DNA of 59,040 nt, the filler included, from Circinaria calcarea (Eukaryota): the NCBI GenBank assembly GCA_051942165.1. It is 4 parts of 4 records of this genome, joined end to end, with 100 filler letters (N's around TTAATTAATTAA, not from the genome) between each part and the next. Parts side by side here need not be neighbours in the genome. Positions count along the whole stretch, not along the records: positions 29,629 to 44,296 come from JAVECS010000411.1; 3 more parts are not named here. One strand, 5' to 3'. Positions 9,418 to 56,709 of the stretch are shown piece by piece. Within the stretch, counting starts at the first letter, position 1. The number at the start of each line of letters is the position of its first letter. The position numbers and the translations under genes were made by a program. The notes under the pieces were generated by a model that made no database searches, had not been told where the DNA came from, and saw only the letters and a program-made list of their open reading frames with translations.

Positions 9418-12400
9418 ATGTCATTTCTGAAAACCCGATTGAGCCAGATATGGCGACGTAGTGAGGATGTCGAGGATCACAATACGGAGAATAGGAAACG
9501 ATCAGAGAGCCAATCCGCCGTCTCTATCGCAGACTCTGGCTGTTTCAGTGCCAGCAGTATTCAGATAACGGATTCTGACCAAATGTCTGAATTGGAGATG
9601 TGTCCAAGTACGATCGATACGTCCGCTATTAATCATCACGCTTCTCCTCCGGGCGATTCACCAAGTAAACGTACCTTGAATAAGGTAGCATCCAGGACCT
9701 TCAAGATGTTCTCCGATACCATTCGGTCCAAGACCCAAATGTTCTATGTGACGCCAGAGGGGTTAGAGACTCCAGTTCCCACTGAGAAAGACAGTCCCGA
9801 GAAACAGAAGCCAAGTATCAAGGCCCCACTATCACTTCGAGGACGAGCCACCAGAGAAGCTCGAGTCACGGATGATTCAGGCGAGCCACCTGCCAGGACT
9901 CTGACTCCGACCAGCTTACCGCATGAGCTTAACGTATACATCCCAGATGCGAGCCTCCTAGAACCAAAGCCGGTCACAACGCCGACCAAATTCAACTCGG
10001 TATCATCATACGAAGATAATGGGTACATTGCAGAAGTGGATACCACCAAGGTTGCTCCTTCGATGACTTCCTCCGCTCTCGTCAACCATGAGACACCATC
10101 ATGCATCATGCTACCCTCAACTCCTGCGGGGTCTCCTAGATCTCAAGTCGGCGGATCCTTATTTGTTAAGGGCAATCGTGAGTGTATTCCCTTGGCTGGG
10201 GCTCGATCTCCATTTCGTCGAGCGATACTCGACCAGAAGGTACAAACATTGCCCATTAACGGTTCACAGGAAAAGAAGGACGGTAATCAGAGACAGCTAG
10301 AGGTGTACCATCGAGTTCTTGTCAACCGTACTAATGGCGTGCCGCCCGCACTCAAAGATCTTTTCGTCAGCCCTACTGAGGATCAAGCTACCAATGCCAG
10401 ATTCAAGATGCAAGTCTTACCAGCAGAATCTTATGAGGTGGACTCGAAAGTATCCAGTGAAATAACAAGTCTGCCCGGTATGGGTCCGAAACTTACCTGG
10501 GATGAAACCAGAGCCGACCGTCAACAAGATTTTCTAGGCAGCGAGGCAATGACTCCTGAAACTGAATCGGACACCGAGGACGATATGACACTTGAGCTTC
10601 GACCGTGCAGTACCGTGGCCTTACCAGAAGTCCTTCGACCCGAGGAGCGTTCGAGGGCCAAGTCGGACCCTATGAAGCTTCCAACCTACAAGAAGGTACG
10701 ATTTGAAACCTCTTGGCCAACCAGTGCCCTCAAATATGCTATCGAGGCCATTGAGAAAAGCAGTGGTGACGCTTTGGATGCTGAATTAGACGAGGCAGCC
10801 CGCGTTACAAGTGCACTACAATATGCTGTCGAGGCTATCGAGAAACCAAGTGGCACAACTATGAACGATGAAGTTCACGAAGTATCGAGTCCGACTGGGG
10901 CCTTTACATATGTTTTTGAAGCAGTTCAAAAGCCCAATGGTCCTGTTGTTGACGCCGTCATGAATCCCGGTGATCTCAATCTTGATTCTGTCATTCGTAT
11001 ACTTCGGAAAGATTCGAAGAGTCAAGAACCCAGGATGAGAGTGGTATTTGAAGACGACAGGTCTCATCTTCCGGCCAAGGATGAACAGAGTAGCGACTCT
11101 ACGGACATGTTACTTCCAGCAACCCAAACAGACAATAGCCTACTAAAGACTCCTTCAAAATCGGAATACTTGATAGGCGGTTCATCAACTCACAACAGGT
11201 CGGTATCAGCGCAAAGCGCTGCTACGACAGACAGCTGTGCTGTCACTACCCACAGCAAGCTTTGTTATAATCCTCTAAGCTTTCCAGGTCTTCATATTCG
11301 CACAACTCCAGTCCGTCGCACTTCCAGCATTAATGCACAAGTTCACGCAGGTCTTATATACCAGGAAGACCAAGAAGTCTTACCCAAGACACGCCAATCG
11401 TCAAGATCCCTTTCCGGATGTTCCGTAGAAGTACAGCCCCCAAGTCCAACAAAGGAGAAAATTCTGGTGGAGGATGAGTTCTCCTTGGACTGTACTCCAA
11501 CGGGAAACCAAATGGAAACTTCTCAACCGCCTCTATTGGTCGCTTTACCAGAGACAAGCACAATACGGCAGTGTGATCTGGACCAGAAACACGGCCTCGG
11601 TAGTCCAAGACGTTCATCCAGCATGTGCGCGCCTGATGGGGACTTCCATCTTGGTGATACAGAGCCTGATATATGTGATTCGCCAGAGCCTATCCCTCCT
11701 CCTTATTATGAGAGGCGATTAGAGAGCTTCGTGTCACAAGGACTCATTCCTCGAGAGGCGATCCCTCAGGTGAGCAGTTTGATCGATCGGTTGACGCCCC
11801 CTCGTCTCTCTCCTTCCGCCGAAGTACTACAAACTTATGCCGTCCGCAGGAACAGTATCACCAAAGCAGACACATTATACACTACTAGTCCAGAAACGCC
11901 ATCGATTTCGAGAAAGGCGTCCAATGTTGAGATCTCCAGCGTCGGACAGACAACAACTGCAAGCAGCGCGTCACCGAGTCTTTCAGTAAACCGCCTATCT
12001 CAAATACCACTTCACGAGTCAGATTTGGTGACCTTGTCGACCTCTTGGTTTGAATCCTTCAGACCTACCAATGTTGATGAAGCTGGCACTATGTCACCGA
12101 GATTTTCTATGGACATTTTGCCCCAGATGCCATTTGATGAGGAAGACATTGTGCCGTTACCAACCTCTTGGTTTGAGAGAGAAGCGTTCAATGATAAGAC
12201 CTCCACAACCGGACGAGTTGCTGTTACGAGTGGTATGTCACCGAATCTCCCAATGGACATCTTACCACAAGTCCCATTTGACGAAACAGATGTTGTGCCA
12301 CTACCAATCTCCTGGTTTGAGAGAAGAACATCCAATGAGAAGGCTTCTATAGTCGGATGGGATGCTGTTGCCAATAGCATCTCACCAAATCTCCCAATGG

Positions 12401-13987
12401 ATATCTCCTCCCAAATGCCACTTAAAAAATCAGATTTAGTCACCTTTTCAACCTCTGGGTTCGAATCTTTCAGATCCACTAACATTGATGAAGTTGGCAG
12501 TATTTCACCGGGGTTTTCTATGGACATCCTGCCCCAGATGCCATTTGACGAAGCGGTAACTGTGCCCTTCCCAACGTCCTGGTTTGAATCGAGTAAACCT
12601 CACGGCATTGATGAATTCGGTCTCCCGCCTTTGTCCCCACCCTTGAAACGAGAAGAGAGATCAAAGCAAGCCATCAAGGATGATTTTTTACCCTTAATGA
12701 GCACCCATGTTCAGGATGCTTCTAATCTTGAGACAGAGTTCATTGCTGCCCGATTGCCGGCATTTGGGCCACCCAGAGTAGACCACAATACTATCCAAGC
12801 TGCAGAGAACCTCCAATCTGATCATGGACAGATAACTAAGCAAGTGGAGAGTTTCCCAAACAGTGACCAACCCACAACAAGCCCAACGAAGGCACCAATA
12901 GGACCTATGGGCCTAAGTCCCCAGACTTTTCCGCTGGCAATACTAGCTAGCGAATATTCCAGAAAGAGGAGCTGGAAGATGAGAGAAACGAGTGCTGATA
13001 GTGAAGAGTCCACCTATGAAGCTGTTGGAACACTGAAGCCAGTGCTCGTAACAAGCAGCGTCAAGAAAGGTGTGTGGTGGAACAGGCACAAGCTACCGTC
13101 TGACGGGTTAGACTCGCCGTTGGGAAAGAAAGCCAAGAAGCAAGAGGGTTCGGATTTACTGCCTCGAGGAAAGACACCGACAAATTTTCTAGAGGATGGC
13201 GTAAGGGTTACTGAGGACATTATGGTCACAAAGCCGCTTGTGTTGCTCGAGCAATTACCTAAAAGCGAGAAGCAGAGCGTGGAGGAACCACGTAAAAACT
13301 CAGATCAGAACATGGAGGAACCGAGCAAAGGCGAGGACCAGAGTATAGAGGAGTCGAGCAAAGGCGAGGACAAGAGCATGGAAGAACCGACCAAAGGCGA
13401 GGACCAGAGCATGGAGGAACCGACCAAAGGCGAGGATCAAACGGGAAGCGTACAAATTCACAGCATGTTTACGGATGACTCGAAATTTGAAAAGGAGCAA
13501 CGAAGCATTATCTCGACGGACGAAGAGACAGAGATACCAACCAAGGAGCATCAGGTACGTACGGATGACTCAAAGGTCGAACAGGATCACCGGAGCACTG
13601 GCTTGGACGACAACAAGATACTACCCGAGCAGAGTCCGGTATGCACGGATGACTCGAAACCCGAAGAGGAGAACCAAAGCACTGTCTTGACAGGCGATGA
13701 GACACTACCTAAGGAGATTTCAGTACGTATGGATGACTCCAAACTTGAAAAGAAGCATCGAAGCACTGCCTCGGAGGACAACAAGACACCAATCAAACAG
13801 AGTCCGGTACGTGGGCAAGATCTAATCTATTTTTGCATAAAGTTACTGACGCTATAAGAGCAAGATCAAGAAATCAATCGGATCATCGACTCCATCTCTG
13901 AAAGCCTCTCCTGGAAGGGTACACCGAAAATCCAAATCCAAAAAAGGGAATCAGCAATGGAGTCCTCAGAGGGGGAAAAGATGGTGA
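9418..13987 (+). CDS. Large (~1500 aa) Ser/Pro/Thr-rich orphan protein with several internal repeat families
   Basis: 4.4-kb open frame from ATG 9418 (MSFLKTRLSQ). Probable terminal intron from GTACGT at 13807 (ACTGAC branch, AAG acceptor ~13858) to a short last exon ending TGA 13985-13987. Confidence 0.65.
11990..12590 (+). repeat. Degenerate coding repeat SPx(F/L)(S/P)MDILPQMPFDExxxVPxPxSWFE, 4-5 copies
   Basis: Repeated ATGGACATxxxxCCxCAxATGCCATTTGA and TCxTGGTTTGA blocks visible in DNA and translation. Confidence 0.8.
13270..13440 (+). repeat. 33-nt coding tandem repeat (EDQSMEEPTKG), ~5 copies
   Basis: Repeated AAAGGCGAGGACCAGAGCATGGAGGAACCGACC-like units. Confidence 0.85.
13465..13812 (+). 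repeat. ~84-nt coding repeat (VRTDDSK...RST...), 4 copies
   Basis: A(C/T)GGATGACTC at 13471, 13561, 13645 and 13729. Confidence 0.8.
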
Positions 13988-14750: not shown

Positions 14751-14850
14751 NNNNNNNNNNNNNNNNNNNNNNNNNNNNNNNNNNNNNNNNNNNNTTAATT
14801 AATTAANNNNNNNNNNNNNNNNNNNNNNNNNNNNNNNNNNNNNNNNNNNN
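14751..14850. other. Assembly gap with artificial six-frame-stop linker
   Basis: 44 N + TTAATTAATTAA + 44 N; identical construct at three places. Confidence 0.97.
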
Positions 14851-15224
14851 GGTGAGAGGGGGTGAGGGCGGGGATGGGGGATTTCCTTATGTTTGGCATG
14901 ATGGCCTTGGGTTTCTTTCCTGAGAAATCAGGGCATTAGAATCTTGTCACTGCAATTTCGCCGAATTGGGAATATCGATATTGCGATTGAATTGAGTCGA
15001 TCTAGTACTATTGAAGAATTGGTGATTGTCATTTGTGTCATTGAGTTGAACATTATCAGCCGTGAACGTTGGATTTTCTGGTAATTGGAAGAAGTACACA
15101 ATCGAAGCGACTGGAAGACACTGTATGCAGTTTCTTCCTTATCCCTTCTCATCCCGAGCGCAATGTCTGACACCCACCGCTGCAAGGCAACCTTTTCATT
15201 GTTGCAACGGCATGCTGCATCGCC

Positions 15225-16610
15225 ATGTCCTCTCCATCTGCCTCTGCCTCTGCCTCTGCCTTCCTCCAGTTCTGGTGGACCGACAGAACCCGCAACACCT
15301 TTCTCTCCTGTCTCCCTCGAGAAGATCTCGCCTCCCTACGCCTGGCCTGTCATGATTTCGGGATCCGGGTGGCGCCGCTGCTCTTCGAGGAGATTACCGT
15401 CCACTTCCGCTCCAGTACTTTCACCAAGCCTGCTCGCATGGCGGCTTTGGATAGGATAGGACAGCACGTTCGGACACTGACGTTCACTATGGCTCATGGA
15501 CCGGAGACCTTCCTCCCTCCGTTATTAGACTCGATCACTGGCGAGGAAGTCACGTTCGAGTATGAGCCGTACTGCAATACAAGTCGGACTTCAGCAGCAC
15601 GACTTAGTGCGCCTACGTACGGTAGCTGGGGAATGACCGATCTGTTGGTGAAACAATATCCGCCACTCTTCCACTCCGCAGCAAATGTACCCTCGTTCAT
15701 ACGGGCCTTCACCGCCGTTAAGAACCTAAAACATCTCAAGATATCCTGTCCGGGGCAAGAACCAGCACAACGGTTTCGAAGGGGTATCGTGGACTACGCT
15801 TTGATATCTCTCCGGATAGCAGTTGAAAGGAGTGGACTATCGGCACTCGACACCCTATCGCTTGTCGAGATACATCCTGGCGCGGTCCTCTATCTCAACC
15901 CTATCATGGGTTTCGGAGCATTGCCAAACTCTGCCAAACGCTGGAAGCAGATCCGAAAACTAGCGATCCACATGGACACCATCCCCTTTGGTGCCAGACA
16001 CGCAATCGACCACCTCAAGCTCCTCCACTCCTACCTCCAGAACTTCTCCTCCTCGCTCCGGCGACTGATCTTCCGGTGGAACGGCGACAAAGGTCCCTTC
16101 CCACTCTCCCTCGGTTCCGAACCCTCCCTCCAGGAACGGAGTCCTCCTCTCGCCTGCCCGCGCCGCTGTCATCTCGCCCTGCGTCCTCTCAGTTTCGCGC
16201 GCCTGCGCTACATGGAAGTCGAGAACGCACTGCTGGACGCGTCGCAGGTTTCGAGTTTCATCACCACGCACCGGCGCTCGATATGTGAGTTTAACTTCGA
16301 GGACTCGGATCTGCGGTCCGGGACGTGGGACGAGGCCCTGGCGCCGCTGACGCGCATCAGCGGCAGCGAGAAGTGGAAGGAGAAGTCGGAGGAGGTCATG
16401 GACGTGCCGCTCATCCTGAGTCCGGTGGGCATGGAGGAAGGGCAGATGGAGAAGGTGTGGCGCGAGTATGCGACAACGAGGGTACGGAGTCCTTATCCGT
16501 CGTCGAGAGGCGGGTGGCAGAAGGCGAGTGCGAAGGGGAGGGGGTTGTTCTGGGGCACGCCGGAGCATCATATGAGGAAGTTCTTTCGGAGCTCGGCTTT
16601 TTGGCGGTAA
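15225..16610 (+). CDS. Conserved fungal hypothetical protein (461 aa) with F-box-like N-terminus
   Basis: Single-exon ORF. FLSCLPREDLASLRLACHDF...PLLFEEI resembles an F-box helix, followed by LRR-like LxxLxI segments. Confidence 0.75.
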   Translation: MSSPSASASASAFLQFWWTDRTRNTFLSCLPREDLASLRLACHDFGIRVAPLLFEEITVHFRSSTFTKPARMAALDRIGQHVRTLTFTMAHGPETFLPPLLDSITGEEVTFEYEPYCNTSRTSAARLSAPTYGSWGMTDLLVKQYPPLFHSAANVPSFIRAFTAVKNLKHLKISCPGQEPAQRFRRGIVDYALISLRIAVERSGLSALDTLSLVEIHPGAVLYLNPIMGFGALPNSAKRWKQIRKLAIHMDTIPFGARHAIDHLKLLHSYLQNFSSSLRRLIFRWNGDKGPFPLSLGSEPSLQERSPPLACPRRCHLALRPLSFARLRYMEVENALLDASQVSSFITTHRRSICEFNFEDSDLRSGTWDEALAPLTRISGSEKWKEKSEEVMDVPLILSPVGMEEGQMEKVWREYATTRVRSPYPSSRGGWQKASAKGRGLFWGTPEHHMRKFFRSSAFWR

Positions 16611-17816: not shown

Positions 17817-18393
17817 ATGTCCTTGAAGAACGGTATGACCATGAGCTATCTGCCCGTCAAGTCGAGTCCCTAATTGCAGTGACTATAAGATGCCTTTCCT
17901 TCCTCTATTGCCTTCGATGCCATCAAAAGCTCCCTCCAATCCGACGACGCGGAGCGCAAAGACGCAATCAAAAAGGGCAATGCCGTATTTGCATTCATCC
18001 TGAAAAACAAAGAAGGGGAAACGTCGAGTTGGTTCATAGATCTGAAAGAGAAGGGAGAGGTAGCTCAGGGAGAAGCTCCTGCGGGGAAGAAGGCAGACGG
18101 TGAGTCTCACTGGTCACCGGGCTATATGGGCAGAAGTCGAAGGCTCTGGGGCCAGACAGTTCAACATATTGGCATCCTTAATCTCAAGAGGGTTAGAAGA
18201 CCACAGGCTGATAAACTTCCTGGATATAGTTACGTTATCATTATCCGATGAAGACTTTGACAAGTTGGTCAGCGGCAAAACACAGGCACAGCGGCTATTT
18301 ATGTCGGGGAAGCTGAAGGTCAAAGGAGATGTGATGAAGGCAACAAAGATGGAGCCGATCCTAAAGAGAGCGCAGACCAAGGCGAAGCTGTAA
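17817..18393 (+). CDS. SCP2 sterol-carrier/lipid-transfer protein, peroxisomal, 3 exons
   Basis: Introns 17833-17889 and 18100-18229 give MSLKND|AFPSS...WFIDLKEKG...KKAD|VTLSLSDEDF...AQRLFMSGKLKVKGDVMKATKME. C-terminal AKL is a PTS1 signal. Confidence 0.92.
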
Positions 18394-29528: not shown

Positions 29529-29628
29529 NNNNNNNNNNNNNNNNNNNNNNNNNNNNNNNNNNNNNNNNNNNNTTAATTAATTAANNNNNNNNNNNNNNNN
29601 NNNNNNNNNNNNNNNNNNNNNNNNNNNN
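29529..29628. other. Assembly gap with artificial six-frame-stop linker
   Basis: 44 N + TTAATTAATTAA + 44 N. Confidence 0.97.
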
Positions 29629-29780: not shown

Positions 29781-30779
29781 TGAAGGGGGGGAAGGTATAT
29801 TACGCAGAATCCTCACGATTTTCAAATGGGATTTGCTGTGTCTGTGGTGAAGGATTTTATAATTACCATACTGCGCTTTATTTTCCCGCACATTCCAACC
29901 ACGGCACTTCCTAGTGACCTGCCTCACTTGTTCCGTTGGTGTTTAGACAGTTGTGAGATGTAGAATTGCGAAAGAAAGATTTTTTCGGTGTTTGGTAGCC
30001 GCAAGCGATATTTTGTCGTCATATGGATCTCTGGTTTTTCAACAACTGGAACCCTTTTTGGATTTTTTTTAAAACGTATCTTTCCGATATTCAATACGAT
30101 ATAATCATTGCGCATGTAAACGGATTATTTGCAAATAGAGTCTAATTTGTGGTTTTTTTAAAAAAAATCGCTGATTCAAGCGCCTCAAACTGAGCTCTCA
30201 TTTGTTAAGAAAAAAAGAAAAAAAAAGGCACACAGTATTGGTGAGTGTATCCGAAACTGTAAGCGTAAAGAGGTGGGGGGATCGGGTTTGAAGATTCCCA
30301 CGTGATCTCGGTTTTCGCTTAGGACCCTTTTTTTTCGATCTTGGCACTTATTATTTTATTAATTCCAACTTTTTACGATTTGACCCCTTTAGGCCGAAAG
30401 CTTAGCGGGCATGACTAAGAAAATCTGCTAAATTTGGGTATTGCTCCAGACCTTTCCGCTGCTATGAGAATACCACATCGGTGATATACTATGGGTCAAG
30501 CTTTGATTTGACGCAAAGAAATTCAATTGGTGCGTGCCCTGCCACGAAGATTGCACATACACTTCTGTTTTGCAGCCTCGTCCTTTGACCAAAATCTAGA
30601 TTACTAGCTAACTTAGTATAACTTCCCAGGCATCTCCTGAAGTACTTCCGCACCTATCCTGATAGCCTAACCAAGAAGACGACTCGAAAACTCCCACTCT
30701 CAACCTAGCCGACTCTGAAATATCCCTCGCCCCAATTGCTTCGGAGGTGACCTCCATTCGGGAAACTCGAGTTGCCATC

Positions 30780-31874
30780 ATGAGTTCAGAGCTTGGCTCC
30801 GTCCTCGTTGTCGGCGGTTGCGGCTTCCTGGGCCATCATATTGTCTCTCAACTTTTGGAAAACCACGTCAAGGTCTCGGTGCTCGACCTCCGGACCACCC
30901 GTAATCGCATTGCTTCGGTGTCTTACTACGATGGAGACATCACCTCTGTCGCAGCGGTTCAGTTTGTCCTCGAGAACGTCAAACCTCAGGTCATCATTCA
31001 TACAGCTTCTCCTGTTGTAGAATCAGGAAACACCGCTCTCTATTATAAGGTCAACGTCGAAGGAACACGGAATCTGCTGGAATGTGCTGGCAAGTTCGGG
31101 GGTGTCAGGGCATTTGTCTACACATCCAGCGCCTCTGTTGTTGATGACTCTGTTAGCGATCTCATAGATGTCGATGAACGCTTACCGATTCTACGAAGCC
31201 CACAGCAGAGGGAAATCTACTCACTCACCAAGGGTATCGCTGAGGACATTGTCTTGGCCGCCAACCGCAAGTACGACAGCATGTTAACGGTCTCGATACG
31301 CCCAGCCGGCATCTTCGGAGAGGGGGATAATCAAATGCTACCGCCAATGCTGAATGCGTATGAGACAGGCAAGACCAAGTTTCAGCTGGGAAATAACACA
31401 AACCTTTTCGACTTCTCGTATGTGGGAAACGTGGCACACGCGCACATACTTGCTGCAAGGGAGCTGATACGAGCCTCCATGAGATCGGTACCCCTTCCAG
31501 CTCACAAAGTTGTAGAAGGTGAAGCGTTTTTCGTTACGAACGACGAACCCTACCGCTTCTGGGACTTCACGCGTGCTCTCTGGCGCGCTGCAGGCGACAA
31601 GACCAAGCCGGAGGCTGTATGGGTCATACCAAAGCAGTTGGGTTTATTCCTTGCCACTATGATAGAATGGTTGGTCTGGCTGTTCACGTTTGGAAGAAAG
31701 GAGCCAAGCTTAACGAGGAAGAAGGTCAGGTTCAGCTGCATGAACAGGACCTTCCGCATTGACAAGATCAAAAGTAGGCTGGGTTATAAACCTCTCATCA
31801 ACATGAGCGAGGCTGTCGAGAGGAGTGTGCAATGGTTCGAAAGGGAGAAGTCGAAAGACAAAAAGGCGAAATGA
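30780..31874 (+). CDS. ERG26: Sterol-4-alpha-carboxylate 3-dehydrogenase (decarboxylating), ERG26/NSDHL family, copy A
   Basis: Intronless 364 aa. VVGGCGFLG Rossmann motif, IHTASP, VNVEGT, YTSSASV, YSLTK (YxxxK), IRPAGIFGEGD, FQLGNNTNLFDFSYVGNVAHAHILAA, GEAFF, RLGY.P; C-terminal KKAK ER-retrieval signal. Confidence 0.9.
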   Translation: MSSELGSVLVVGGCGFLGHHIVSQLLENHVKVSVLDLRTTRNRIASVSYYDGDITSVAAVQFVLENVKPQVIIHTASPVVESGNTALYYKVNVEGTRNLLECAGKFGGVRAFVYTSSASVVDDSVSDLIDVDERLPILRSPQQREIYSLTKGIAEDIVLAANRKYDSMLTVSIRPAGIFGEGDNQMLPPMLNAYETGKTKFQLGNNTNLFDFSYVGNVAHAHILAARELIRASMRSVPLPAHKVVEGEAFFVTNDEPYRFWDFTRALWRAAGDKTKPEAVWVIPKQLGLFLATMIEWLVWLFTFGRKEPSLTRKKVRFSCMNRTFRIDKIKSRLGYKPLINMSEAVERSVQWFEREKSKDKKAK

Positions 31875-33585
31875 AAATAATCATCCCCAGTAGCGGACAA
31901 TAGAGCTCTATAAAGCCAATGTTAGCGGTGGTTATCCCCAGGCCGGACAGGCGTACCTGAAAACAGTGCGATGACCATAGGGCCGGCAGCGTTTCCAAGA
32001 ACGTACACAGATAATACAAATGAGGCGAGGGCTAGGCTGGTGGATCCGAACTCGGTCATGAGCTGGGGCACGCTGGGAGCAAACAATGAGGAGGCGAGTC
32101 ATCTGTCATTTTAAATCAGTATATCGACAGTGAGTGTGTGGTATTGAGTCCCGTACATAGGTGATTAATGTCATGGCTGCAAAGATCGCGATCAGGAGCC
32201 ATTTTTCTCTGGCTTCCAGTTGAGCGCTATGTCTGGGTCTCAGGGGCCGTTGAAATCCACGGTGTCAAAATCGGGAACCTCCAGTGCGTATGGATAACCA
32301 AGCGCAGCCTTTCTGTCACACTGCATGTCGTTTCTGTACTGTATCTATGCCTGAGACTATGCTGTAAGATAGTTGGAGGAAACAGTGTTTTTGAAATCAA
32401 TCCAAATTTGTTCTTCTTTCCCGAATCATCTGGGCCTTCGAACGGTTGCAATTGGTGCTTTGGTTGCTCAGATAAGCGGGATTGTTCGTAAAGCCAGCCC
32501 TCAAACAGCTTAATCGAAGTATTCTGGAAGAGCAGGTACCGAGCTGTCGAGCCAGAGGAGTAACATTATCCAAAGGCATATGCCGGGAGCAGCGACGATG
32601 GCCAAATTACTGGCGAGTGAGCGGGGGACTTCCCAGAGCCTCGGAGCAGACATCACGCCTTCGATCGAGACCTTCGGGACACAGAAGCGAAATGTACAGA
32701 GTAAGAGAACCGTATCAGCGTGAGGAATAGCGGCAGTCACCACTTGCACAGCGCCAAATTGAACCCTCTCAAAACTCAGGACATGGCGTGTCAATGGAGA
32801 AAGGGAAACGCGGGGCCACCACTATGACCCATATGCGTTTTGCCACAAATGGGAGACAATGCCTGTGTACGGTGGGAGGAAGGCTAATGACGCAACGCCA
32901 TGGTAAATCTGGGAATGATCCGAGCGGCCACTAGCGGCCGTTACGCGTTGAACCCAATTTTAGTGATAGCCCCTCCTGGTTTCGATTGCCACTACAACTG
33001 TGGGGCTAGTCCAGTCACATATGCAGCTGCAGCAAGGGTATTCGCATTTGGGACTTTAGGGCATACGTAATAGAGCTAAACTTTAGGGTGGAAGATCGGC
33101 TTGGCTAATGCGTTTAACGCTCCTTTCATGGCGGAAGTGGGGTATCGGATGAAAATACCTCAGCCCTTCTTTCCCCCTTGGGCCCGGGGATAGTGCTCCT
33201 TTGGATCTTATGCGAGTGCGGTGAGCTAGGCACAGCAAGGGAGAGAAAGTTCGGAGAAGAGGCTAGACCGTGCGTACACAAAACCCTACACGCAAGGCAT
33301 CACCGACTCCAGCCGGCCAGATGATGGGATTATCGAGACCTTTCCGGACAATATGCCTTGACCAAAGTTTCATACTGTCCGAAGCTGCCGTGCATGCTTG
33401 GAGCGGGTGTTAAGCCAGGGTTTCCGAAGCTCCATCGTGGGAGCCCGATCTCAGTGGGTGCGCCCGGCGAGCTATAATGCTCCCAGCAATTCGCCTGAAT
33501 AGGATCTTTTCAACAGATAAATGTATTTATCAATATCTTGATTTGATCTTAAGACGGAATAAGAATACTTAGTAAAGTAGCAGAT

Positions 33586-35708
33586 ATGATTCGATATCCG
33601 ATCTTGTCAAGCTTTGTTATTGATGTGCTTTATTCCGGACCACGGTACCTTTTTCTTATTTTAATCCTCTGCACACTATGGTGCTGTGCCAGATCTTACT
33701 TTCGTCGACCGGTAACTTCTACGAATTCATTGGTGTTTTATACGTCGTCTTGTACCTGAGTGCTAATCTCTATAGAGGGGCATTCCCATTATAAGTTACT
33801 CGATATTTGGGGAATGGCTGAGTGGCTTCTACTTCCTCTTTCGCGGCTGCCACATCATCACTCAACACTATGTGCTGAATCCACACAAACCTGTCTCTAA
33901 CGTTCTCAAGGCGAATACTGATGTCGTTGTAGCACAAAGACATTGCATATGCCGTTCCTACGCCGGATAGCTACCTTGTTATGATCTCGAGCAGCAGCCA
34001 TATCAAAGAGCTCAATGCCGCACCTGAAGAAAGACTATCACTTCGTGCGGCAGTAGAGGAGGTTCGCTGCTTCTCATTGTAATAATACTTTGACGGTTAT
34101 GTTGACACAATGAAAGGTATTTCAGTACGAGTATACCTTCAAACTCTTCCCGCGGCAACTACAGCTAGATCAGCCTGCCGGCTCATCGTTTGCTCGCATT
34201 ATTGGGTCTCTTCTACCGCAGTACTTCGCGAAGATACAACCTACAGTCCTCTCAAAGATAGGCGTAGCTTTGGCTGAGGAGATAGAGAGTCAATTGCAAA
34301 CCGATGGTGCGCAGCGTTCATTTATATCCTCGCACAGGGCTAAACAGTTTACAAGGGTGGAGCTGCGTGCCAGTCTATAATATGTTTAAAAGGATATGGG
34401 GGAAGACCAATAGTGTAGCTATGCTTGGAGAGAAAATCTGTGAGGTCTACGGTCCAAGAGGGGTACTTAAGCTGACTTCACGAGAAGCAAACAATTCTAT
34501 GGCAATAGATGCGGCAATACAATATCCCCAAGATATGGTAACTGCAGGAGAGCTTGTGAAGCACGTACCAGCATGGCTTGCGCCGTATGTCATCAAAAAG
34601 TATCTACCCGTTACGTCAAGCTAATTTTCTTAGGGCGCTAGCATCCTTCGCGACGAGAGATCAAGGTGCTGCAAAGACCTTTGTGGACGCCGTTACGCCG
34701 ATTATTGAGGAGAGACTTAAAAGCTCTACTGCCCAATCCAGACCTGAATCTAAGAACGTACGTGGAAGTATTGATATACATCGATATGAGACTATGCGCC
34801 TGATCACCTCTATAGTTCGATGCGATTCAATGGCTAATTGACACATCGCCAAAAAAACATCCGTGGGACATCCAAAGGTTTCAACGAGAAATTCTTGGTA
34901 TGTGGAGTGCCTCGAGCTTTTCACCCCCTCCTGTGAGTGAACCCCATGGGGATGATCGCTAGCCGATTCTGATATTCACGGGCCCAGGTACTGACAAACT
35001 CTTTCTACGATTTATGCCTTCGGCCAGAATACATCAAGCCGCTTCGGGAGGAGGCTGAAAATTTCTTAAAGTCAGATTACGATGATACCGGAGATGATAT
35101 GATGCCCCTGATGGACAGCTTTCTCAGGGAGTCTGCTCGTCTGAATCCTCTCGACAGCAGTAAGTTACGTCTTTGGTCTCGGAACTCTGCTCTACCCAAT
35201 TAATGTGCTTATAGTTTCGGTGCGGCGGAAAGCCACTGTTCCCTTCACGTTCTCTGACGGCATATACATACCGAAAGGTAGCACACTGTGCGTTCCCCAA
35301 CGAGCGATGATGCAACACGAGCAAGACCATCCGTCACCATCCGAGTTCCATGGGTTCCGTTTCACTGCCAGCCATGGAATGCCCGAATATGGAGGCCAGA
35401 TCAAGTTGACGGATGCGAATATTACCTTTCCGATATGGGGACTAGGGAAGCGGCTATGGTGCGTAACTGCCCTGTAGAGCATCACCTAACTGGTTGAATC
35501 ACTAATCCCGTCATCGCGAATTACCAGCCCCGGCAGATTTTACACCTCGATCCTATTCAAAATGATCTTTGCGCTGATTCTGTCACGGTACGACTTCAAG
35601 CTTGCTAACCCTCAAGCATCCCGTACATTCGCATTTCGGACCGCATTGGTACCGCGTTCATCTAACAGAGTTCTCTTCCGGAGGCGTAGTGATTTGCCCT
35701 TTATCTGA
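33586..35708 (+). CDS. Cytochrome P450 monooxygenase A (~10 introns)
   Basis: N-terminal TM (YLFLILILCTLWCC), DAIQWLID, LYDLCLRPEYIKPLREE, MDSFLRESARLNP (ExxR), PFTFSDG, FHGFRF, heme motif WGLGKRL-C-PGRF with the Cys codon split by intron 35459-35527; stop 35706-35708. One donor (GTGCTG, ~33872) is weak. Confidence 0.85.
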
Positions 35709-35919
35709 ATGTTAGAAGCTTATAGCTACTTAGAATGGGAGAGCCCTGGGTGAAGCAAGTAGACAAAGCCAGCTGTTCTTAACGGCTCAAGGGGTGGTCC
35801 ACTGGTCTCTGAGTAGGCCGTGGTGGAGCTCTATCAAAGTAGAATCCGATTCATTATTCTAACCGCAAGATAGACTAAGATAGATGAAATTGAAGAAAAT
35901 TGTGCGCTCGCTTCAGCTT

Positions 35920-37050
35920 TTAAGTCTTTCCCTTGCTCCTTAGATTCACTGATTTCTGCTCCATAGCCCACTCAACCCCCTTCCTTATACCCCCATCAAT
36001 ATCCTGGATTGGCACATACCCAAGTCTCTCCTTAGCTTTCTGAATGGAAAATGTCCGCGTCGAGCACACGTACTCTATCCGGTCTCGGGTAAAAATGTAA
36101 GGTTGCTTAGTCCCCAAGGTAAAGACCCAAAATAGCCAATCCGTTGTACTTGCCAAAGCCAAAGCCACCTTGGCGGGAATCACCCACACCTGATCTTTTG
36201 TTGTTTTATCCCCAGCGGCACTCCAAATCTTTCGGACAAAATCCCACATTGGAAGAGGAGCGCCGTCGGTAATGAAGAAAGCCTCTCCATCTACCTTGGG
36301 CATATTAGGGTCTACTGTCCCAGCTAACAATGCCTTGGCAGCCAGGACGTGGGCTGAGGCAGCGTTTCCGGCATAGCACCAGTCCACAAGGTTTTGGTTA
36401 TCACCAAACTGAACGCGTGCTCCAGCTGGCTTCTCTAACGTCTCAAGAGCGCTGCTGATCAATTGCATGTCTCTTTCTCCGTAAACGCCGCAGGGTCTAA
36501 TGCTAGCAGTTCGAAAACCAGCTCCATTATCAGCTGAAGGGTTGTTGGCCGCGAGGACGAGGGTTTCGGCAATAGCCTTTGACTTGGTATACGAGTCTGC
36601 CTTAGACGAAGCGTCAAGGATGGACCGGCTCTCATCAACGTTGACGTACTCTTTGCCTGTCACAACTGAGGTAGATGATGTGAAGACAAAGGCGAGAACC
36701 GAAGGAGTTTCCGACGCGCATGCGAGGAGGTTTGCTGTGCCGTCGATGTTGACATTATGATGGATCAAACTACTGGCGGACGAGCTGAAGGCTGTCGGAG
36801 AAGCGGTGTGGATGATGACGCGAGGCTGGATCTTGGCCAGCATTGAGCTCACGCTCTGTCGATCGGTAATATCCACCGCATGATATGACACTCCAGGCAG
36901 GCGATTGCGGGTGGGATTGCGGCTGAAAACCGCGATGGATGTGCAGTCAGGGTCTTCGAGGAGCGAGCAGACAATGTGGAAGCCAATGAACCCACAGCCG
37001 CCGACAACTACGACAGGGCCCAGGGTCTTCGATGGATGTGAAGTGGACAT
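35920..37050 (-). CDS. Divergent ERG26/NSDHL-like 3-beta-hydroxysteroid dehydrogenase/decarboxylase, copy B
   Basis: Intronless 376 aa. VVGGCGFIG, IHTASP, VNIDGT, FTSSTSV, YTKSK, IRPCGVYGERD, QFGDNQNLVDWCYAGNAASAHVLAA, DGEAFFI, RLGY.P. Confidence 0.9.
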   Translation of the reverse strand: MSTSHPSKTLGPVVVVGGCGFIGFHIVCSLLEDPDCTSIAVFSRNPTRNRLPGVSYHAVDITDRQSVSSMLAKIQPRVIIHTASPTAFSSSASSLIHHNVNIDGTANLLACASETPSVLAFVFTSSTSVVTGKEYVNVDESRSILDASSKADSYTKSKAIAETLVLAANNPSADNGAGFRTASIRPCGVYGERDMQLISSALETLEKPAGARVQFGDNQNLVDWCYAGNAASAHVLAAKALLAGTVDPNMPKVDGEAFFITDGAPLPMWDFVRKIWSAAGDKTTKDQVWVIPAKVALALASTTDWLFWVFTLGTKQPYIFTRDRIEYVCSTRTFSIQKAKERLGYVPIQDIDGGIRKGVEWAMEQKSVNLRSKGKT

Positions 37051-37772
37051 CGTAGCTCCCAGAGAGGGTTAGATTCAGCTCTGAGAAGAGGGCAACCTGG
37101 AAGATGGTGGCAACAAAGACCCGGACGAACGAATGACACAGCGATCGGAGGGATCAAGAATCGACGAGGCCAACCGGGGAAATGTGAAGGGGAATATGCA
37201 AGAGCTGCATGTTGGTCTGGAAAAGTCTCCCAGCTCATCTCATAAGTTCCGTGTTCCACACGGCGCAGGATAACAAGTCAACTGCCTTGATTGGTAGGGC
37301 AAGCTTCACCCACATTAAATCAGCACTACGCATCCCGAACCACAACTTAGTAACTGTCTTGCAGCAAACTGTGCCATGTAGGTGCGTATTAGAGTCATCA
37401 CAAAGGTTTAGATCCTCCGTCCTTGATACAGGACCTTGACAGCTCCGGTCGACCGTAGCGTTGATCTTGGGTTACACCGCCGCCGTTGGGAAGCTGCAAA
37501 CCTTATGGTACTGCCACGGGTCCACCCGATCCGTCAAGGTACATGCTGCAGCCTCGGCCTAGTCGATCCATCTTATCGTTCCATTCACAGTACAGTATGT
37601 TTTCCCCGCTCAGAGAAGGCTACTGCGGCCATGGGCTCTGGCGTTACATATCTCTATCTCAATCTGCTTGTTGCTTAACTTCAATTGGTCCTGACCCCCC
37701 GACCCCCCTCCAACATCCTGTCATTTGATTCCCGAAACATTTACGCACCGGCAACCGCTCTAGAAGCGTGTT

Positions 37773-37967
37773 TACTACGGTGCCAGGCATAATGATTAAT
37801 AGCGCTGCAGATCTTACAGGGGTAAATCTCTTGCCATTCTATTTAGCCGCTATATTGACCTGTATGTCAAGATAGACAGATAACGGTACAATTTCATTAA
37901 CTATATAAAAGCAGCAATGCCAAGCCAGCCAAGGCGCTATCAATTAATTACGCCTGGCACCGTAGTA
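37773..37967. mobile_element. MITE, Tc1/mariner-like, 195 bp
   Basis: Terminal inverted repeats TACTACGGTGCCAGGCATAATGATTAATAGCGC and GCGCTATCAATTAATTACGCCTGGCACCGTAGTA with TA ends; no coding capacity. Confidence 0.8.
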
Positions 37968-38364
37968 CACAGATAGTAGACAGAGATTCTTCGAGAACCA
38001 TTTGCGCGCGTGCTCCCATCTCGAGTCTTCACCGTTTGCTCCTTGCATTTTCTTGGCAATAAACACTGATCCTTCGAGGATCAGTGTTTATTGATTTGCA
38101 GTCAAGCCATGGCACAGCAGCAGTATTACTCTATCCAAGTTAACACATGCGTAGCATGTGTTGGCCCCCGTCAGCCGCTACCGTACAGTAGCTGCCTCGT
38201 TGCCCCACCAAGTATATCGTTTACGAAAAGAAGGTATTGGAGTTTTGAAAATACCATCTTCTCTGCAGAGACACATTCTTCATCCTTCCTACCATTTGAA
38301 TCCTCCTGAGGTCTCTGCTAGGTATAGTGAGAAGAGTATCTTCATTATCGCTTACTTGGAAGAT

Positions 38365-40516
38365 ATGACAATGATTGAAGCTATCTATAATTCTTTCGTC
38401 GCTTATAATTACATCGTACTTGCTGCTATCGGCATCACATTCACTCTCCTTGTGATTTGGTTTGATAGACAAGTTGGAGCTTTTCCAGTACCTCCGGTTT
38501 GTAAATCTCGCCTGGGCCCACATCAACTCGTCTATTCTAACACTGTTTAAATCAGACTAATGCTACGATACCGAGTCTCTCTGCTTCACGTTCAGGCCGA
38601 TGGATAGAAAGTATTAAATACCTTTTCGAGGGCACCGAGAAGATACTCCAGGGTTACGTGAGTTCCTGGTGAAGGAGCAATTGAATCGCATCAAGACTTA
38701 TCCATCTTTTGCAGAGACCTGGAGAGCCCTATGTCGTCGCAACCCCAAAGAATTACTGCATCTTTGTCTCATCCAAGAAACATATGGTACAGCTCGGTGA
38801 AGCGCCCGAGCTATCGCAGCGCGCAGCTTATGATGATGTTAGTCCGAGCTGGAAGCCTACATATCGCCGTTCGCTGCTAATAATGGATTAACAGCTTCTC
38901 GGATTGGAAGAAACAGTTATTCAACTTGAGAATCCTAGGATGGAAGAGCAAACTACAGCAAGCCGTGGGCTTCAAGCTCGAGTTCTCCAAATGACCACAT
39001 CGTTGCGGCTACCATTGCTTCGACCAGCTTTAGAGAAGCTGTTCGCAGAGTTCTTCACTACAGAGTTGAAAGGGTTGAAGGAGAACGACGGTATGTATTG
39101 CTTATTAACAGTAAGTTGATCTATATCATCGATATTGACTCTTTCCAGGTTGGGTATCCGTACAAGTTGCTCCCGTAATCCAGAAAGCAGTCGATAAAAT
39201 GAATTGCTTGATATTCTTCGGCGAAAGACTGTGTAAGAGTAGTGGAGTTAGGCAACATTTCCCTCCATAGCTAACCATCCACAGCAGAGGAGCCTGGGTT
39301 TGAGAGTGCGTTGGCTACATTTTCCATGGACATAATTTACTCCGGCGAAGCAAAGCAAATGCTGCCAACTTGGATGATTTCGTGAGCTCAAATTGACAAG
39401 CCTCTCAAGTCACATGCTGAAGAACGTAGGGTTTTCCATGCTCTTGTCACAAAGCGGAATCATGCTATGAACACGCTCGTAAAACATCTACTGCCGGAGG
39501 TGACGCGTTGTCAAACCCAAAATGGAAAGGGTCCGGGCAAGCACGAAGATGCTACGATGGTTAATCAATCCTATGGCTCGCTCAGAGTGTGACTAACGAG
39601 GTCAGCTCACCGTTCTTGAGCGGATCGTACGCATGGCCGAAGGTAAGAGTTATTGGCCACCGAACAACATTATTCGAAGTATCCTTGGGTTGTGGTTTGC
39701 GTCGGCTCATCAACTTTGGATGGTATGAACTTAACCAGTTGTTGGTAGATTCACACTAATATCAGGCTCAGACCATCGTCAACAATATCCACGAACTTTG
39801 CCTCCATCCCGAGTATATTGAAATCCTCAGAGATGAGATTAGAAAGCAGCCAGCCTTGGATTTTAATAATCCCAATAGTCTCCCAGTACTCGATGGATTT
39901 ATGAGGGAGACCAATCGCCTGAATGCGTTCGATACGAGTAAGTATCTTTAGAAATGATGTAGGTTGACTCATTAAGTGGTGCTGATTTGTTCCGTATAGT
40001 TGGAGCGAGAAGGAAAGTAATGAGACCCTTTACCTTTTCCGATGGAGGACCGCATGTTCCTGTTGGAAACATAGTTGGGTTCCCGCAATACGGCATCTTA
40101 TACGATGAAAAGAATTATCCTGATCCGCTCAAGTTCAACGGCTTTCGCTTTTGTGCTGATACGTCCAACTCCGGATCCGCCCCGAAGGGCGGTATACAGA
40201 TTCCGAAATCAATTCGATATACCGATGTTTCGGAAGTATATACAATCTGGGGGTTTGGCTCGTGGGCATGGTAAGTCCTTGAAAGCGTCTCTTCTTTGCT
40301 ATATGTCTTTCGATAAACATTGCTGATATATTGACTTCTAGCCCTGGGAGGTACTATGCTTCATATATTATGAAGTTGATTCTGGTGTATCTTCTGATAA
40401 ATTACGACTTTAAGCTTGCAGACAAAAATGCCTCCCTGAAGTACAAATGGCGTTCATTTCGGCTCCCGCGAGAGGGAACTCATTTTCTTTTCCGCAAAAG
40501 GGTTCAGAAGGCTTAG
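38365..40516 (+). CDS. Cytochrome P450 monooxygenase B (~10 introns)
   Basis: TM YIVLAAIGITFTLLVIWF; I-helix LGLWFASAHQ; IHELCLHPEYIEILRDEI; LDGFMRETNRLN (ExxR); RRKVMRPFTFSDG; DPLKFNGFRF; heme WGFGSWA-C-PGRY with Cys codon split by intron 40271-40341. Confidence 0.87.
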
Positions 40517-41947: not shown

Positions 41948-43484
41948 ATGTCTTCATCCTCCACGCCCGACATGAGCTGGCTTGAAAATATTCCAGGGTT
42001 TCCACCGCCACCAGGCACTGTTCCTAACTTCGTCAATCCGTACAGCCAGGGTCCGATTTTAATTATTGTAGGATCTATCCTGATTGCTATTATGATGGTA
42101 TTTTTTATAGTCAGAGTATACACAAAAGCATTCATTCAACGCAGAGCCTCTTGGGACGATTGTACGTTATATATGTTGCCGATTACTCTGACCTCATTGG
42201 CTAATGCATTACTCAGTAACATGCACACTCGCAGCTGTATGTATCTTTGCCGCCCCGAGTGCTGTTTGAAAAGGTGCATAATATGATGCAGTTTGGAGCA
42301 ATTGTATACTTTATCAACTGCATTTATGGTTAGTCAAACATCCTTTGAGCTTCAAGGCGAATGCTGAACATGAATGCCACAGCTGTCAGGGGGAAGGTAG
42401 GCATTCACCAGTGGAATGTCAGGGCAGCGGACCTGACGAGTAATGATTATATTGTGGTGAGTCAAAGGCGGTGAACTACATCGTCAAAGAAAGAAGTTAT
42501 ACTAAATGGTATACAATAAAACAGCCACTCTATCTTTCCACTGTCCTGATATCACCAATACTGCTTTTCACGAAGCTTACCTTCTTCCTCCTGTATATAC
42601 AATTGTTCAAGCCGGATAAATGGCTCAGGTATTGTATCTATGGCGGTGGAATCTTCACAGTGGGGTTTTATCTGAGCGTCGGTATTGCGCAATTTGTTTT
42701 CACAACTCCGGCTCCCGGAAAGACATTCTTGGAAGCGTATTCAAAGGAGAACGCGGACAGGGCAAGGGACTGTTCGGTCCCGTTGTCTGCTGTCGGTTGT
42801 GCGATCGATTTATACATTCTCTTATTGCCAATCTCTGCTGTTTGGAAGCTTCAGATGGCGATGCGACGGAAAATTGGTCTCGTCTTGATCTTCATGACAG
42901 GTACCGTGTATGGATCTCTCGACTTTCGAACGAAGTAAAGCTAGGTGCTGACCTTACTCAACAGCGCAGTTGTTGCTTCTATCCTGAGCCTCTACTACCG
43001 TATCATTCTAAACCGGAACACGGATGAGAACACTCCAGCGGAGAGCGGCGTCGCAGTATCGGATACCACCTGGTTAATTCTACCAATTCTAGCTACCGCG
43101 TGAGTCTACCCCCCTTAAGCTATCTTTCAATGACTAAGTCTATGATAAAGGCTGGTTGAGGTGTGTGTGGGTGTCATGGTCTCTTGCATGCCACAGCTTG
43201 CCTCCTTCTTCCGTCACCACAAAACTTCGTTCCTCAGCTTCTATTCTCGAATCTTGAAGTATTATCCTTCCAAGTCATTTACTGTGGCAAACCGACAATC
43301 ACCTGAACCCGATGGTATCCACCTCGAGAGCCAATTGCTAGGCACGGCTAAACACGGAGAGGGAAAGTTCCTCAACACCAGGGATATGAACGAGATAGAC
43401 TGGCTGCGTCAAGTCAAAGATCAAGGGAAGGAGGCTCACAGCGAGGTCATGGACTCCTCGGAGCCGAGGGTAGAAACGGCGTGA
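41948..43484 (+). CDS. PTH11/SAT4-like fungal rhodopsin-domain integral membrane protein (no CFEM), multi-exon
   Basis: PPPPGTVPNFVNP; TM1 then RVYTK...WDD; G.HQWNV; KLTFFLLYIQLF; DLYILLLPISAVWKLQM..RRKIGL..IF; VEVCVGVMVSCMP. Confidence 0.85.
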
Positions 43485-44296: not shown

Positions 44297-44396
44297 NNNN
44301 NNNNNNNNNNNNNNNNNNNNNNNNNNNNNNNNNNNNNNNNTTAATTAATTAANNNNNNNNNNNNNNNNNNNNNNNNNNNNNNNNNNNNNNNNNNNN
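44297..44396. other. Assembly gap with artificial six-frame-stop linker
   Basis: 44 N + TTAATTAATTAA + 44 N. Confidence 0.97.
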
Positions 44397-54936: not shown

Positions 54937-56387
54937 TCATTTCCTCCTCTTCATTGTCTTAACGCACATCTCGAGCAAGCCGTCCTTGGCTTCCGAGTCG
55001 GGGAAACTACTGATGGCATGCACGGCCTTGTCGGCGTAATCTTGGGCTAGGGCTCGGGTTTGCTCGATGCCGGAACTGCGGGAGACGAGGTCACGGGCCT
55101 GGAATTGATCACAAATTATTAGCAAGGATGCCTATTGGAGGGTCTAGATGAAAGTGAAAGAACTCAACTAACCCTTTGCACATCACCCTTACCCGAAAAT
55201 TTCCTTCCCACTAAGGCTCCCAACTCGGCATTATCCTTCCATGCGAACAGTAATGGCGCAGTTGCAAGTCCCAACTCCAGATCCGCCCCGGCCGGTTTTC
55301 CCAACTCTACCCGGCTGATGGTATAATCTAACATGTCATCCACAAGCTGGAATGCCAATCCTAGATTCTTCCCATACGCGTAGGCTGCCTCAACCACTTG
55401 GGGGGAGCTTTGACCTAGCAACGCGGCCGCACGACAGGATTTGCTAATCAAGCTCGCGGACTTGAGGTAGGTTTTCTGTAGGTAGTAGGATATGGTATCG
55501 TCGGTCCAGACGGGGTTAGGTTCATCTAAAGCCGTGTTCTTCAATTGCATGAATTCGCCTTCTACGAGGTTTGCGATTACGGTCGCGAGGAGCTCGATAA
55601 CCTCTGCATCTCGTAGTCGAGCCAGAGCCACAGAGGCGCGGCCAAGAAGGAAGTCCCCGGCCAAGACAGCCATTTTGTTACCAAAGGCAATGTTGGCGGA
55701 CGGGGCGGAGCGGCGGGTAGAGGAAGTGTCGATGACATCGTCATGGAGAAGAGAGGCGGTGTGAATCAGTTCGGTAATTTCTGCGAGCCGTCGTTGTGAG
55801 GGAAGTATATCTGGACTTTGAGGGCTGTAGGCTGCGTCAAGAGGGGAGGATGCGGTCAACGGATCCGTGAGGGGGGAAGGATTGACATCTGCGAGGATGG
55901 TAGACGGGGTAATAGGACTGTTGATTGCTGGGGCAATAGGAATCGAAGGATCTCTCGCGGCTTTGGGGGTTATAGATGTCGCCCGGGACATGAGGAGGAC
56001 AAGGAGAGGGCGGATGTGTTTGCCTTCAGCTTGGGTATAGTATTTCGCTACGGTATCGAGCATAGGGTGGCCGGATCCAAGGAGCTGGCGTATGTTACCG
56101 GTGAGGAACTGCATCTCCTTTCCCACAAGCCGCAGAGGGTCCACGGAGACGCCTGCGAGCGGTCCTCCAGTTTTGCCTCCATTGCTTAAGATGGTCTGGG
56201 CGGCGGAGACGGCTTGCGCCCATGTCGATTGAGAACGCCGACGTGCAGGAGGGTATAATTTGGACGGTATTGACGAGAACGGTTGTTTAGATGGCCATGC
56301 CCGTCGGTAACAAGGGCAGAACGAGGCTTGACGTATGGAGATCAATTGATTGATAACACCGCCTTTACACAGTAAACGAGGTCTCAT
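54937..56387 (-). CDS. COQ1: Mitochondrial polyprenyl (hexa-/decaprenyl) diphosphate synthase, 2 exons
   Basis: Arg-rich presequence; GKHIRPLL; QRRLAEITELIHTASLLHDDVID (FARM); GNKMAVLAGDFLL; KTYLKSASL; GLAFQLVDDMLD (SARM); LGKPAGADL; intron 55099-55172. Confidence 0.93.
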
Positions 56388-56709
56388 TCTCTTCGGTCGA
56401 CCTCGAAGATACAGAATGCTTCGGATCTTCTCTTAGGTACCTTGAACTCCTGACTCGGTAATTGCGGAAGTGAATATAGCATCATCGTCCCCCGCCCATG
56501 TGTTCCGCAAGCTGCATCACGTTAATAATTTAAACTGCGGTGCCTGGAAAAAGTTTATGATGACCCATATACAATGATCGTCTGCAGGGATCTTGACCCG
56601 GCTGTCGGCGATTGCTCCAGCGCCAAGGCTCCCGAGTAGCTGATGAACATATCTAATAAGCTCTTATTCGTAATTAATTCACAAAGGAACAATACATTCA
56701 GTGTTTAAT

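Follow-up and report, generated by a model that had tools for sequence, protein, structure and literature searches.

A diverged ERG26-like paralogue beside two cytochrome P450 genes in Circinaria calcarea, probably a tailoring oxidoreductase of sterols or triterpenoids

Two genes of the 3-beta-hydroxysteroid dehydrogenase (3-beta-HSD)/ERG26 type, here called copy A and copy B, lie close together in a 59,040-nucleotide stretch of DNA from Circinaria calcarea (assembly GCA_051942165.1), which is referred to below, at its full length, as the window. We consider it probable that copy B acts on sterols or triterpenoids as an NADP(H)-type oxidoreductase, together with the neighbouring cytochrome P450s, and that the two copies do not form a pair of drug target and resistant duplicate. 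Copy B would represent a family of enzymes derived from ERG26 that is apparently undescribed, has a switched cofactor site and is accompanied in lichen fungi by conserved P450 and membrane-protein partners.

Results

Two convergent genes of the ERG26 type

Copy A, the ERG26 gene (30780-31874, + strand), is intronless; its open frame spans 30666..31874, the first Met codon lies at 30780, and the product has 364 amino acids (30780-31871). Copy B (35920-37050, - strand), a diverged ERG26-like 3-beta-HSD family oxidoreductase, is likewise intronless and encodes 376 amino acids (37050-35923) within an open frame at 35920..37068. The two genes are convergent, with 4,045 bases between their stop codons. 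Both proteins match the Pfam family 3Beta_HSD, PF01073 (E 2.3e-62 for copy A and 6.9e-54 for copy B), and a BLASTP alignment of one against the other gave 148 identical residues in 359 (41%, E 1e-96), a resemblance far above chance. A tblastn search of the window with 10 family members as queries detected neither a third HSD copy nor a fragment of one.

The original prediction, made from the sequence of this stretch, had described two ERG26 homologues 4 kb apart, the first with canonical motifs and the second keeping GxxGxxG and YxxxK, altering nearby motifs and ending without KKxx. These statements, positions included, are borne out by the translations. Copy A reads RPAGIFGEGD, NLFDFSYVGNVAHAH and a C-terminal KKAK; copy B reads GGCGFIG, YTKSK, RPCGVYGERD and NLVDWCYAGNAASAH, and its C-terminal end, ...SKGKT, is neither KKXX nor KXKXX.

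A residue signature separates the two clades

Residues of the two proteins were compared with those of their relatives as alignment columns, with 121 rows for the A clade and 120 for the B clade. Several features are common to both: the Rossmann Gly columns are at least 85% conserved in each clade, the catalytic residues are kept (Ser116/Tyr147/Lys151 in copy A, Ser125/Tyr154/Lys158 in copy B), and the catalytic Tyr and Lys are 100% conserved in each. The cofactor site differs between the clades. At the end of beta-strand 2, the column of Asp36 of copy A, which aligns with an Asp of human NSDHL, holds Asp in 121/121 A-clade rows, whereas the B clade has Ser in 111 of 120 rows, with Arg in the following column in 113 of 120. 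Copy B itself carries Ser43-Arg44 where copy A has Asp-Leu, and HMMER aligns the Ser of copy B to the NSDHL Asp; the acidic residue tied to NAD+ preference is present in copy A and absent from copy B.

In short-chain dehydrogenases/reductases (SDRs), losing that Asp and gaining an adjacent Arg moves cofactor preference from NAD to NADP(H), and a double mutant of human 3-beta-HSD1 at the same two positions reportedly shows this shift. Read by the general SDR rule, the change from Asp to Ser-Arg suggests that copy B uses NADP(H). Three further switches run through the whole family (copy A numbering), namely Phe179 to Tyr, Gly182 to Arg and Asn254 to Asp, and these are the motif differences to which the original prediction had pointed. 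The B clade includes three basal Lichinomycetes members that retain the A-type residues, so the switch took place stepwise once the duplication had occurred. Among the best 150 representatives at 50% identity, Ser-Arg was found in 60 and Asp in 57, with 12 gapped and other residues in the remainder; the cofactor-switched family is therefore a large one.

At the putative substrate pocket, most B-clade proteins still have a basic residue. In yeast Erg26, Arg315 has been modelled to bind the 4-carboxylate, and human NSDHL has His there, according to PMC4633953. Arg323 of copy A and Arg332 of copy B each sit in a Cys-x-x-Arg motif spaced like Cys312/Arg315 of the yeast enzyme as given in PMC4633953, a mapping made by motif spacing alone. 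The corresponding column holds Arg in 119/121 A-clade rows, and Arg in 70, His in 28 and Lys in 9 of the 120 B-clade rows, so that a basic residue is present in 120/121 and 107/120 rows, respectively. Given the Arg of copy B and the His of human NSDHL at this putative carboxylate site, a carboxylated substrate for copy B remains plausible.

Two broader differences complete the signature. A KKXX or KXKXX end occurs in 81/121 A-clade rows vs 17/120 B-clade rows, and the number of columns conserved to 90% or more is 127 for the A clade vs 78 for the B clade. The lower number of conserved columns, together with the many subclades within single genera described below, looks like diversifying substrate use.

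Copy B belongs to an old paralogue family

The closest relative of copy B among its best 120 matches is only 61% identical. These 120 matches span many lichen genera, including Trapelia, Lobaria, Sticta, Peltula, Loxospora, Xylographa, Usnea, Letharia and others, and include one Leotiomycete protein; the family comprises at least 120 clusters at 90% identity, as counted from the best matches alone. A FastTree phylogeny of 241 proteins separated the A list (121 rows) from the B list (120 rows) by one branch with support 100. In a quick IQ-TREE analysis of 63 rows with metagenome outgroups, the B family formed one clade with support 100 on a stem of 0.47 changes per site, and this clade arose among A-type lineages.

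By orthology, copy A groups with bona fide ERG26 proteins of related species, and copy B falls in the separate clade. The B family holds many subclades, and single genera are found in several of them. Because copy B is split from the A clade with support 100 and its relatives are spread widely across lichen genera, it is best regarded as belonging to an old paralogue family that arose from ERG26, and is neither a recent nor a private duplicate of this locus. The AlphaFold model of copy B (mean predicted local distance difference test score, pLDDT, 78) shows a generic extended-SDR fold, and a Foldseek search of this model against the PDB returned generic extended SDRs of the sugar-nucleotide epimerase/dehydratase type, which are uninformative on substrate and cofactor.

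B-type genes are linked to P450 and PF20684 genes in other lichen fungi

Metagenome contigs were scanned with an alignment of the subclade of copy B. This yielded 78 loci, which were searched with both P450 models of the window, a Xylographa P450, PF20684 frames and copies A and B. Loci were grouped by eye from scores and tree distances, and groups were counted only where at least 8 kb of flank was present. A P450 gene lay within about 4 kb in 5 of 9 B-type groups and a PF20684 gene in 3 of 9, compared with 1 of 13 A-type groups for P450 (a protein 23% identical) and 0 of 13 for PF20684. Fisher tests of B-type vs A-type groups gave p values of 0.023 for P450 and 0.007 for either family. The adjacency of P450 and dehydrogenase genes seen in the window is therefore shared by five of the nine B-type groups and by a single A-type group.

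On contig L002 and its twin L003, an A-type gene (55% identical to copy A), a PF20684 gene (44% identical to that of the window), a B-type gene (44% identical to copy B) and a P450 gene lie within 9 kb. Contig L012 carries PF20684, B-type and P450 genes, L041 carries PF20684 and B-type genes, and L059 a B-like gene with a P450. No scaffold-forming enzyme was found in the 21 kb of L002 or the 20.7 kb of L012. In the quick IQ-TREE phylogeny, the module-linked B-type genes fall in at least three B subclades, which suggests that the association of B-type, P450 and PF20684 genes is old.

Proximity of A-type and B-type genes recurs as well. In annotated Circinaria calcarea, the orthologue of copy A (Q9187_000645) and a B-family gene (locus tag ending in 648) sit on a single contig of 28.8 kb, with locus tags that differ by three; the latter is 50% identical to copy B and belongs to a different subclade. 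The closeness of A and B in the window and in Circinaria, and again on the unrelated lichen contig L002, is best read as a leftover of the founding tandem duplication. A comparison of the flanks of copy A with those of A-type metagenome loci gave no shared neighbours and was uninformative.

On L002, an Erg28-family frame (2064-2708, - strand, Pfam E 3.6e-34) was also observed about 2 kb from the A-type ERG26 gene (4926-6038, - strand). The PF20684/B-type/P450 module on that contig is thereby linked to two components of the sterol C-4 demethylation complex.

Copy A is a typical member of the ERG26 clade

Relatives of copy A were taken as the best 120 of 1902 matches with E up to 0.001. The best of them are proteins of lichen-forming fungi, one at 91% identity and the Circinaria calcarea protein Q9187_000645 at 90%; the remaining relatives are 57-73% identical and include several that carry the source name erg26 (Lignoscripta, Varicellaria, Trapelia, Loxospora, Peltigera and others). 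In the trees, copy A groups with Circinaria, Lignoscripta, Varicellaria and Trapelia inside the A clade, matching species relationships. Human NSDHL (6jkg) matches copy A with E 1.2e-41 and 146 bits, and the same region of copy B with E 1.5e-22 and 83 bits.

Copy A follows its clade in 123 of the 127 columns with A-clade conservation of 90% or more. As far as sites can be mapped, none of the four deviating columns is at a resistance site named in PMC4633953. Separately, residue 122 (31143-31145), a few residues past the catalytic Ser, shows a lineage-specific substitution: it is Asp in copy A and in its Circinaria orthologue, and His in 94% of A-clade proteins. Because of the clade conservation, a tree position that follows the species and the closer match to human NSDHL, the evidence favours copy A being an ordinary ergosterol-pathway ERG26 of the housekeeping type.

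Gene neighbourhood in the window

Pfam scans covered 61 chosen frames of the 98 with at least 110 amino acids across the window, and 132 frames of at least 45 amino acids between 31.7 and 44.2 kb; neither set contained a polyketide synthase, non-ribosomal peptide synthetase, terpene cyclase or oxidosqualene cyclase. Housekeeping genes occupy both flanks, among them those for TANGO2, a RanBP1/FG nucleoporin, a nitrilase-type hydrolase, UDP-glucose:glycoprotein glucosyltransferase (UGGT), a polyprenyl synthase and Vma12.

Two P450 genes, their exons modelled by eye from the sequence and their frames checked by script to be open, enclose copy B. P450-1 (33586-35708, + strand) ends 212 bp from it and has an 11-exon model of 529 amino acids, with Pfam p450 matches on single exons and with ExxR, PERF-like and heme-Cys motifs. 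P450-2 (38365-40516, + strand) begins 1.3 kb from copy B; its 11-exon model encodes 519 amino acids, matches Pfam p450 on exon 10 and has 10 introns of 46-95 nt, all GT..AG. The introns of the two genes lie in matching places, and the last one, intron 10 in P450-1, splits the heme Cys codon in both. The Xylographa trunciseda P450 MMC11_001458 aligns end to end with both products (34% identity with P450-1, 36% with P450-2), and an 89-amino-acid P450 exon used as a query against longer proteins gave 2 matches among 27 candidates. P450-1 and P450-2 are only 31% identical to each other, which makes the duplication behind them an old one. The 1.3 kb spacer between the divergent genes copy B and P450-2 (37051-38364) is, judging from this geometry, a possible shared promoter.

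Further along lies a gene for a multi-pass membrane protein of family PF20684 (Fung_rhodopsin; 41948-43484, + strand), with several exons whose borders are approximate. Its frame at 42447-42935 matches the Pfam family with E 1.9e-17, N- and C-terminal frames were also located, and it is 44-46% identical to the PF20684 frames beside B-type genes on L002 and L012. On the other side, two short frames abut the 3' end of copy A (31925-32264, - strand). One of them (31925-32098, - strand) matches MFS_1, of the major facilitator superfamily (MFS), with E 0.02 at profile positions 11-56 of 347, which is below the Pfam cut-off, and no further MFS exons were found among the 132 frames of at least 45 amino acids in 31.7-44.2 kb. 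The two frames resemble the first two MFS membrane helices and are likely a truncated transporter relic, with the N-terminal part only, which hints at past rearrangement or transporter decay. A search with the Erg28 frame of L002 found no Erg28 in the window.

Several other features were observed. At 12.5 kb upstream of copy A there is a frame with an SCP-2 sterol-transfer domain (17889-18248, + strand, Pfam E 2.1e-05), a placement that may be coincidental. The polyprenyl synthase frame (55164-56432, - strand, Pfam E 4.4e-64) has a long N-terminal extension and lies beyond the UGGT and other housekeeping genes, 12 kb further on; it is not counted in the module. Two very long frames, at 9253-13857 (+ strand, 1534 amino acids) and 15171-16610 (+ strand, 479 amino acids), have no Pfam match. 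Paired 44-base runs of N at 14751-14850, 29529-29628 and 44297-44396, spaced at about 14.8 kb, look like masking rather than assembly gaps; one of them interrupts the frame that starts at 43520.

Discussion

A probable tailoring role for copy B

Like ERG26/NSDHL (EC 1.1.1.170), both copies match PF01073, carry the Rossmann motif and the catalytic Ser/Tyr/Lys, and are of similar length. Copy A extends this likeness to the NAD-specifying Asp, the putative pocket Arg, the di-lysine end of the endoplasmic reticulum (ER) type and the grouping with annotated lichen erg26 proteins. Copy B, in contrast, belongs to a separate clade, has Ser-Arg for Asp-Leu and Tyr/Arg/Asp for Phe179/Gly182/Asn254, and lacks a di-lysine end.

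A working model for P450-1, P450-2 and copy B is offered by helvolic acid biosynthesis in Aspergillus fumigatus, in which the P450 HelB1 makes a C-4 carboxyl and the dehydrogenase HelC triggers decarboxylation, as described in PMC5696383. As there, genes for a P450 and a 3-hydroxyl dehydrogenase stand side by side. The hel cluster in that account also has its own oxidosqualene cyclase, acyltransferases and more, whereas none of these was found in the scanned frames of the window; moreover, HelC is called a short-chain dehydrogenase/reductase in PMC5696383, and its likeness to copy B is functional only. By this analogy, a sterol or triterpenoid made elsewhere would be oxidised by the two neighbouring P450s, one of which would convert the methyl next to C-3 to a carboxyl. 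Copy B would oxidise the 3-hydroxyl with NADP+, and the neighbouring carboxyl would then be lost, in a demethylation like that by HelB1 and HelC. Oxidation of the 3-hydroxyl with loss of the carboxyl is, on this comparison, the most likely chemistry of copy B.

Several points weigh against this proposal. The role of copy B is predicted from sequence, and its substrate is a guess because no substrate-forming enzyme lies nearby. Use of NADP(H) is inferred from the SDR rule and the 3-beta-HSD mutagenesis mentioned above, and the mapping of the putative carboxylate-binding Arg follows the spacing of Cys-x-x-Arg only. A nearby P450 is missing from four of the nine B-type locus groups, and two of the other five have one that is just 26-28% identical to the P450s of the window; the contrast with A-type groups is rough, since loci were grouped by eye and many A-type controls come from non-lichen organisms. 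The P450-1 model calls for two introns of only 34 and 40 nt and for a number of weak donor sites, and its I-helix shows Phe and three prolines at positions occupied by His and other residues in P450-2 and the Xylographa relative; given these weak splice sites and the odd I-helix, P450-1 may be decaying, or the modelled exon borders may be off. Finally, copy B differs from copy A at a column that probably corresponds to yeast Arg39, a site of resistance to the Erg26 inhibitor FR171456, although this change is family-wide.

More speculatively, and with little expectation that it will hold in full, an ancient and undescribed three-gene unit may exist in lichen fungi and some relatives that arose from a tandem duplication of ERG26. 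It would consist of an NADP(H)-type paralogue, one or two P450s replacing the Erg25 methyl oxidase, and a seven-helix PF20684 protein providing Erg28-like tethering in the membrane, and would amount to a second, P450-based route of sterol demethylation or remodelling. If so, the compounds it makes might play a part in the symbiotic membrane or in signalling.

Alternative functions of copy B

As the chief alternative, copy B might work in the opposite direction, as an NADPH-dependent 3-ketosteroid reductase with an Erg27-like role for the product of the module. A Ser-Arg pair closing the second beta strand is characteristic of SDRs that use NADPH, enzymes that mostly act as reductases in cells, and some vertebrate members of the 3-beta-HSD family are NADPH-dependent 3-keto reductases. 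The basic pocket residue is also less strictly kept in the B clade than in the A clade; even so, it is still present in the great majority of B rows at the putative carboxylate site, which is a better fit to a carboxylated substrate, and we regard the reductase variant as unlikely.

It is similarly doubtful that copy B retains the function of Erg26, that is, turnover of 4-alpha-carboxysterols. This idea can draw on the catalytic residues and the Cys-x-x-Arg pocket motif that copy B keeps, on automatic annotations that name several B-type proteins erg26, and on the duplicated ERG genes that many fungi carry. Atlas look-ups gave generic names only (P450 or LovA-like for the P450s; ERG26 or erg26-like for the nearest clusters of copy B). 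Against it stand the family-wide switch from Asp to Ser-Arg with three other fixed changes, the smaller number of conserved columns with many subclades within single genera, the enrichment of P450 and PF20684 neighbours, and the loss of the di-lysine signal in most members. Because the family has changed its cofactor-determining residues, copy B is probably not a simple replacement of Erg26.

A cluster of the abscisic-acid type, with two P450s and a dehydrogenase, was dropped as a candidate, copy B not being a classical SDR.

Self-resistance to an Erg26 inhibitor is very unlikely

The original prediction had asked whether the pair might combine a biosynthetic enzyme with a self-resistance copy: the cluster might make a steroid that inhibits Erg26/NSDHL, for instance an analogue of FR171456, and one of the two copies would be the insensitive target. 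FR171456 targets Erg26, and single substitutions confer resistance, with Arg39 among eight such sites (PMC4633953); of these sites, only those in the Asp-x-Arg and Cys-x-x-Arg contexts were matched. The idea has some appeal. Only 4 kb separate two homologues of an essential, validated drug target, and two P450s and a possible transporter relic accompany them, as target-duplicate self-resistance genes lie beside tailoring-type genes. The NAD-binding loop of copy B differs from that of copy A, including the column that the Asp-x-Arg context probably equates with Arg39, and the A-type copy and Erg28 homologue beside the module on L002 could be spare parts of a C-4 demethylation complex.

We nevertheless consider this explanation very unlikely. 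No scaffold-forming enzyme or core synthase was found in the scanned frames of the window, nor a scaffold-forming enzyme in the metagenome contigs L002 and L012. A self-resistance copy would be expected to show a few local changes, whereas copy B, at 41% identity to copy A, with a long stem, a changed cofactor site and a lost ER signal, looks more like another enzyme than an insensitive Erg26; the duplicate is ancient and widespread, with functional sites changed. Its peculiarities are common to more than 100 proteins of many lichen genera, and are therefore hard to see as an adaptation specific to this locus. On the other side of the supposed pair, copy A is an unremarkable member of its clade, and the Circinaria assembly has a single A-type protein among the best 120 matches. 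The linkage of B-type genes to P450 and PF20684 genes elsewhere also speaks for a pathway enzyme.

Accordingly, the part of the original prediction that saw the diverged copy as a pathway enzyme fits the evidence, while the resistance role, and with it a cluster for an Erg26-inhibiting steroid, is not supported. Its fallback view of copy A as an ordinary housekeeping ERG26 is favoured by the identity of its relatives, its placement in the trees and the NSDHL match. A literature search whose coverage leaves out most subscription journals turned up no account of the present gene set or of a fungal cluster with a resistance gene of the Erg26 type, so that the apparent novelty is weakly founded. 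A review of ergosterol in A. fumigatus makes no mention of erg26, and papers on a lichen squalene-synthase cluster and on onoceroids deal with other genes. The locus provides no lead to an Erg26-inhibiting natural product.

Implications

If copy B and its relatives are what we propose, many lichen genes labelled erg26 are not Erg26 but members of a distinct family with its own conserved partners, and their annotation would be corrected. The same result would call for caution in resistance-guided genome mining, where any duplicated ERG gene may be flagged as a resistance marker. It would also be a pointer to unexplored sterol or triterpenoid chemistry in lichens.

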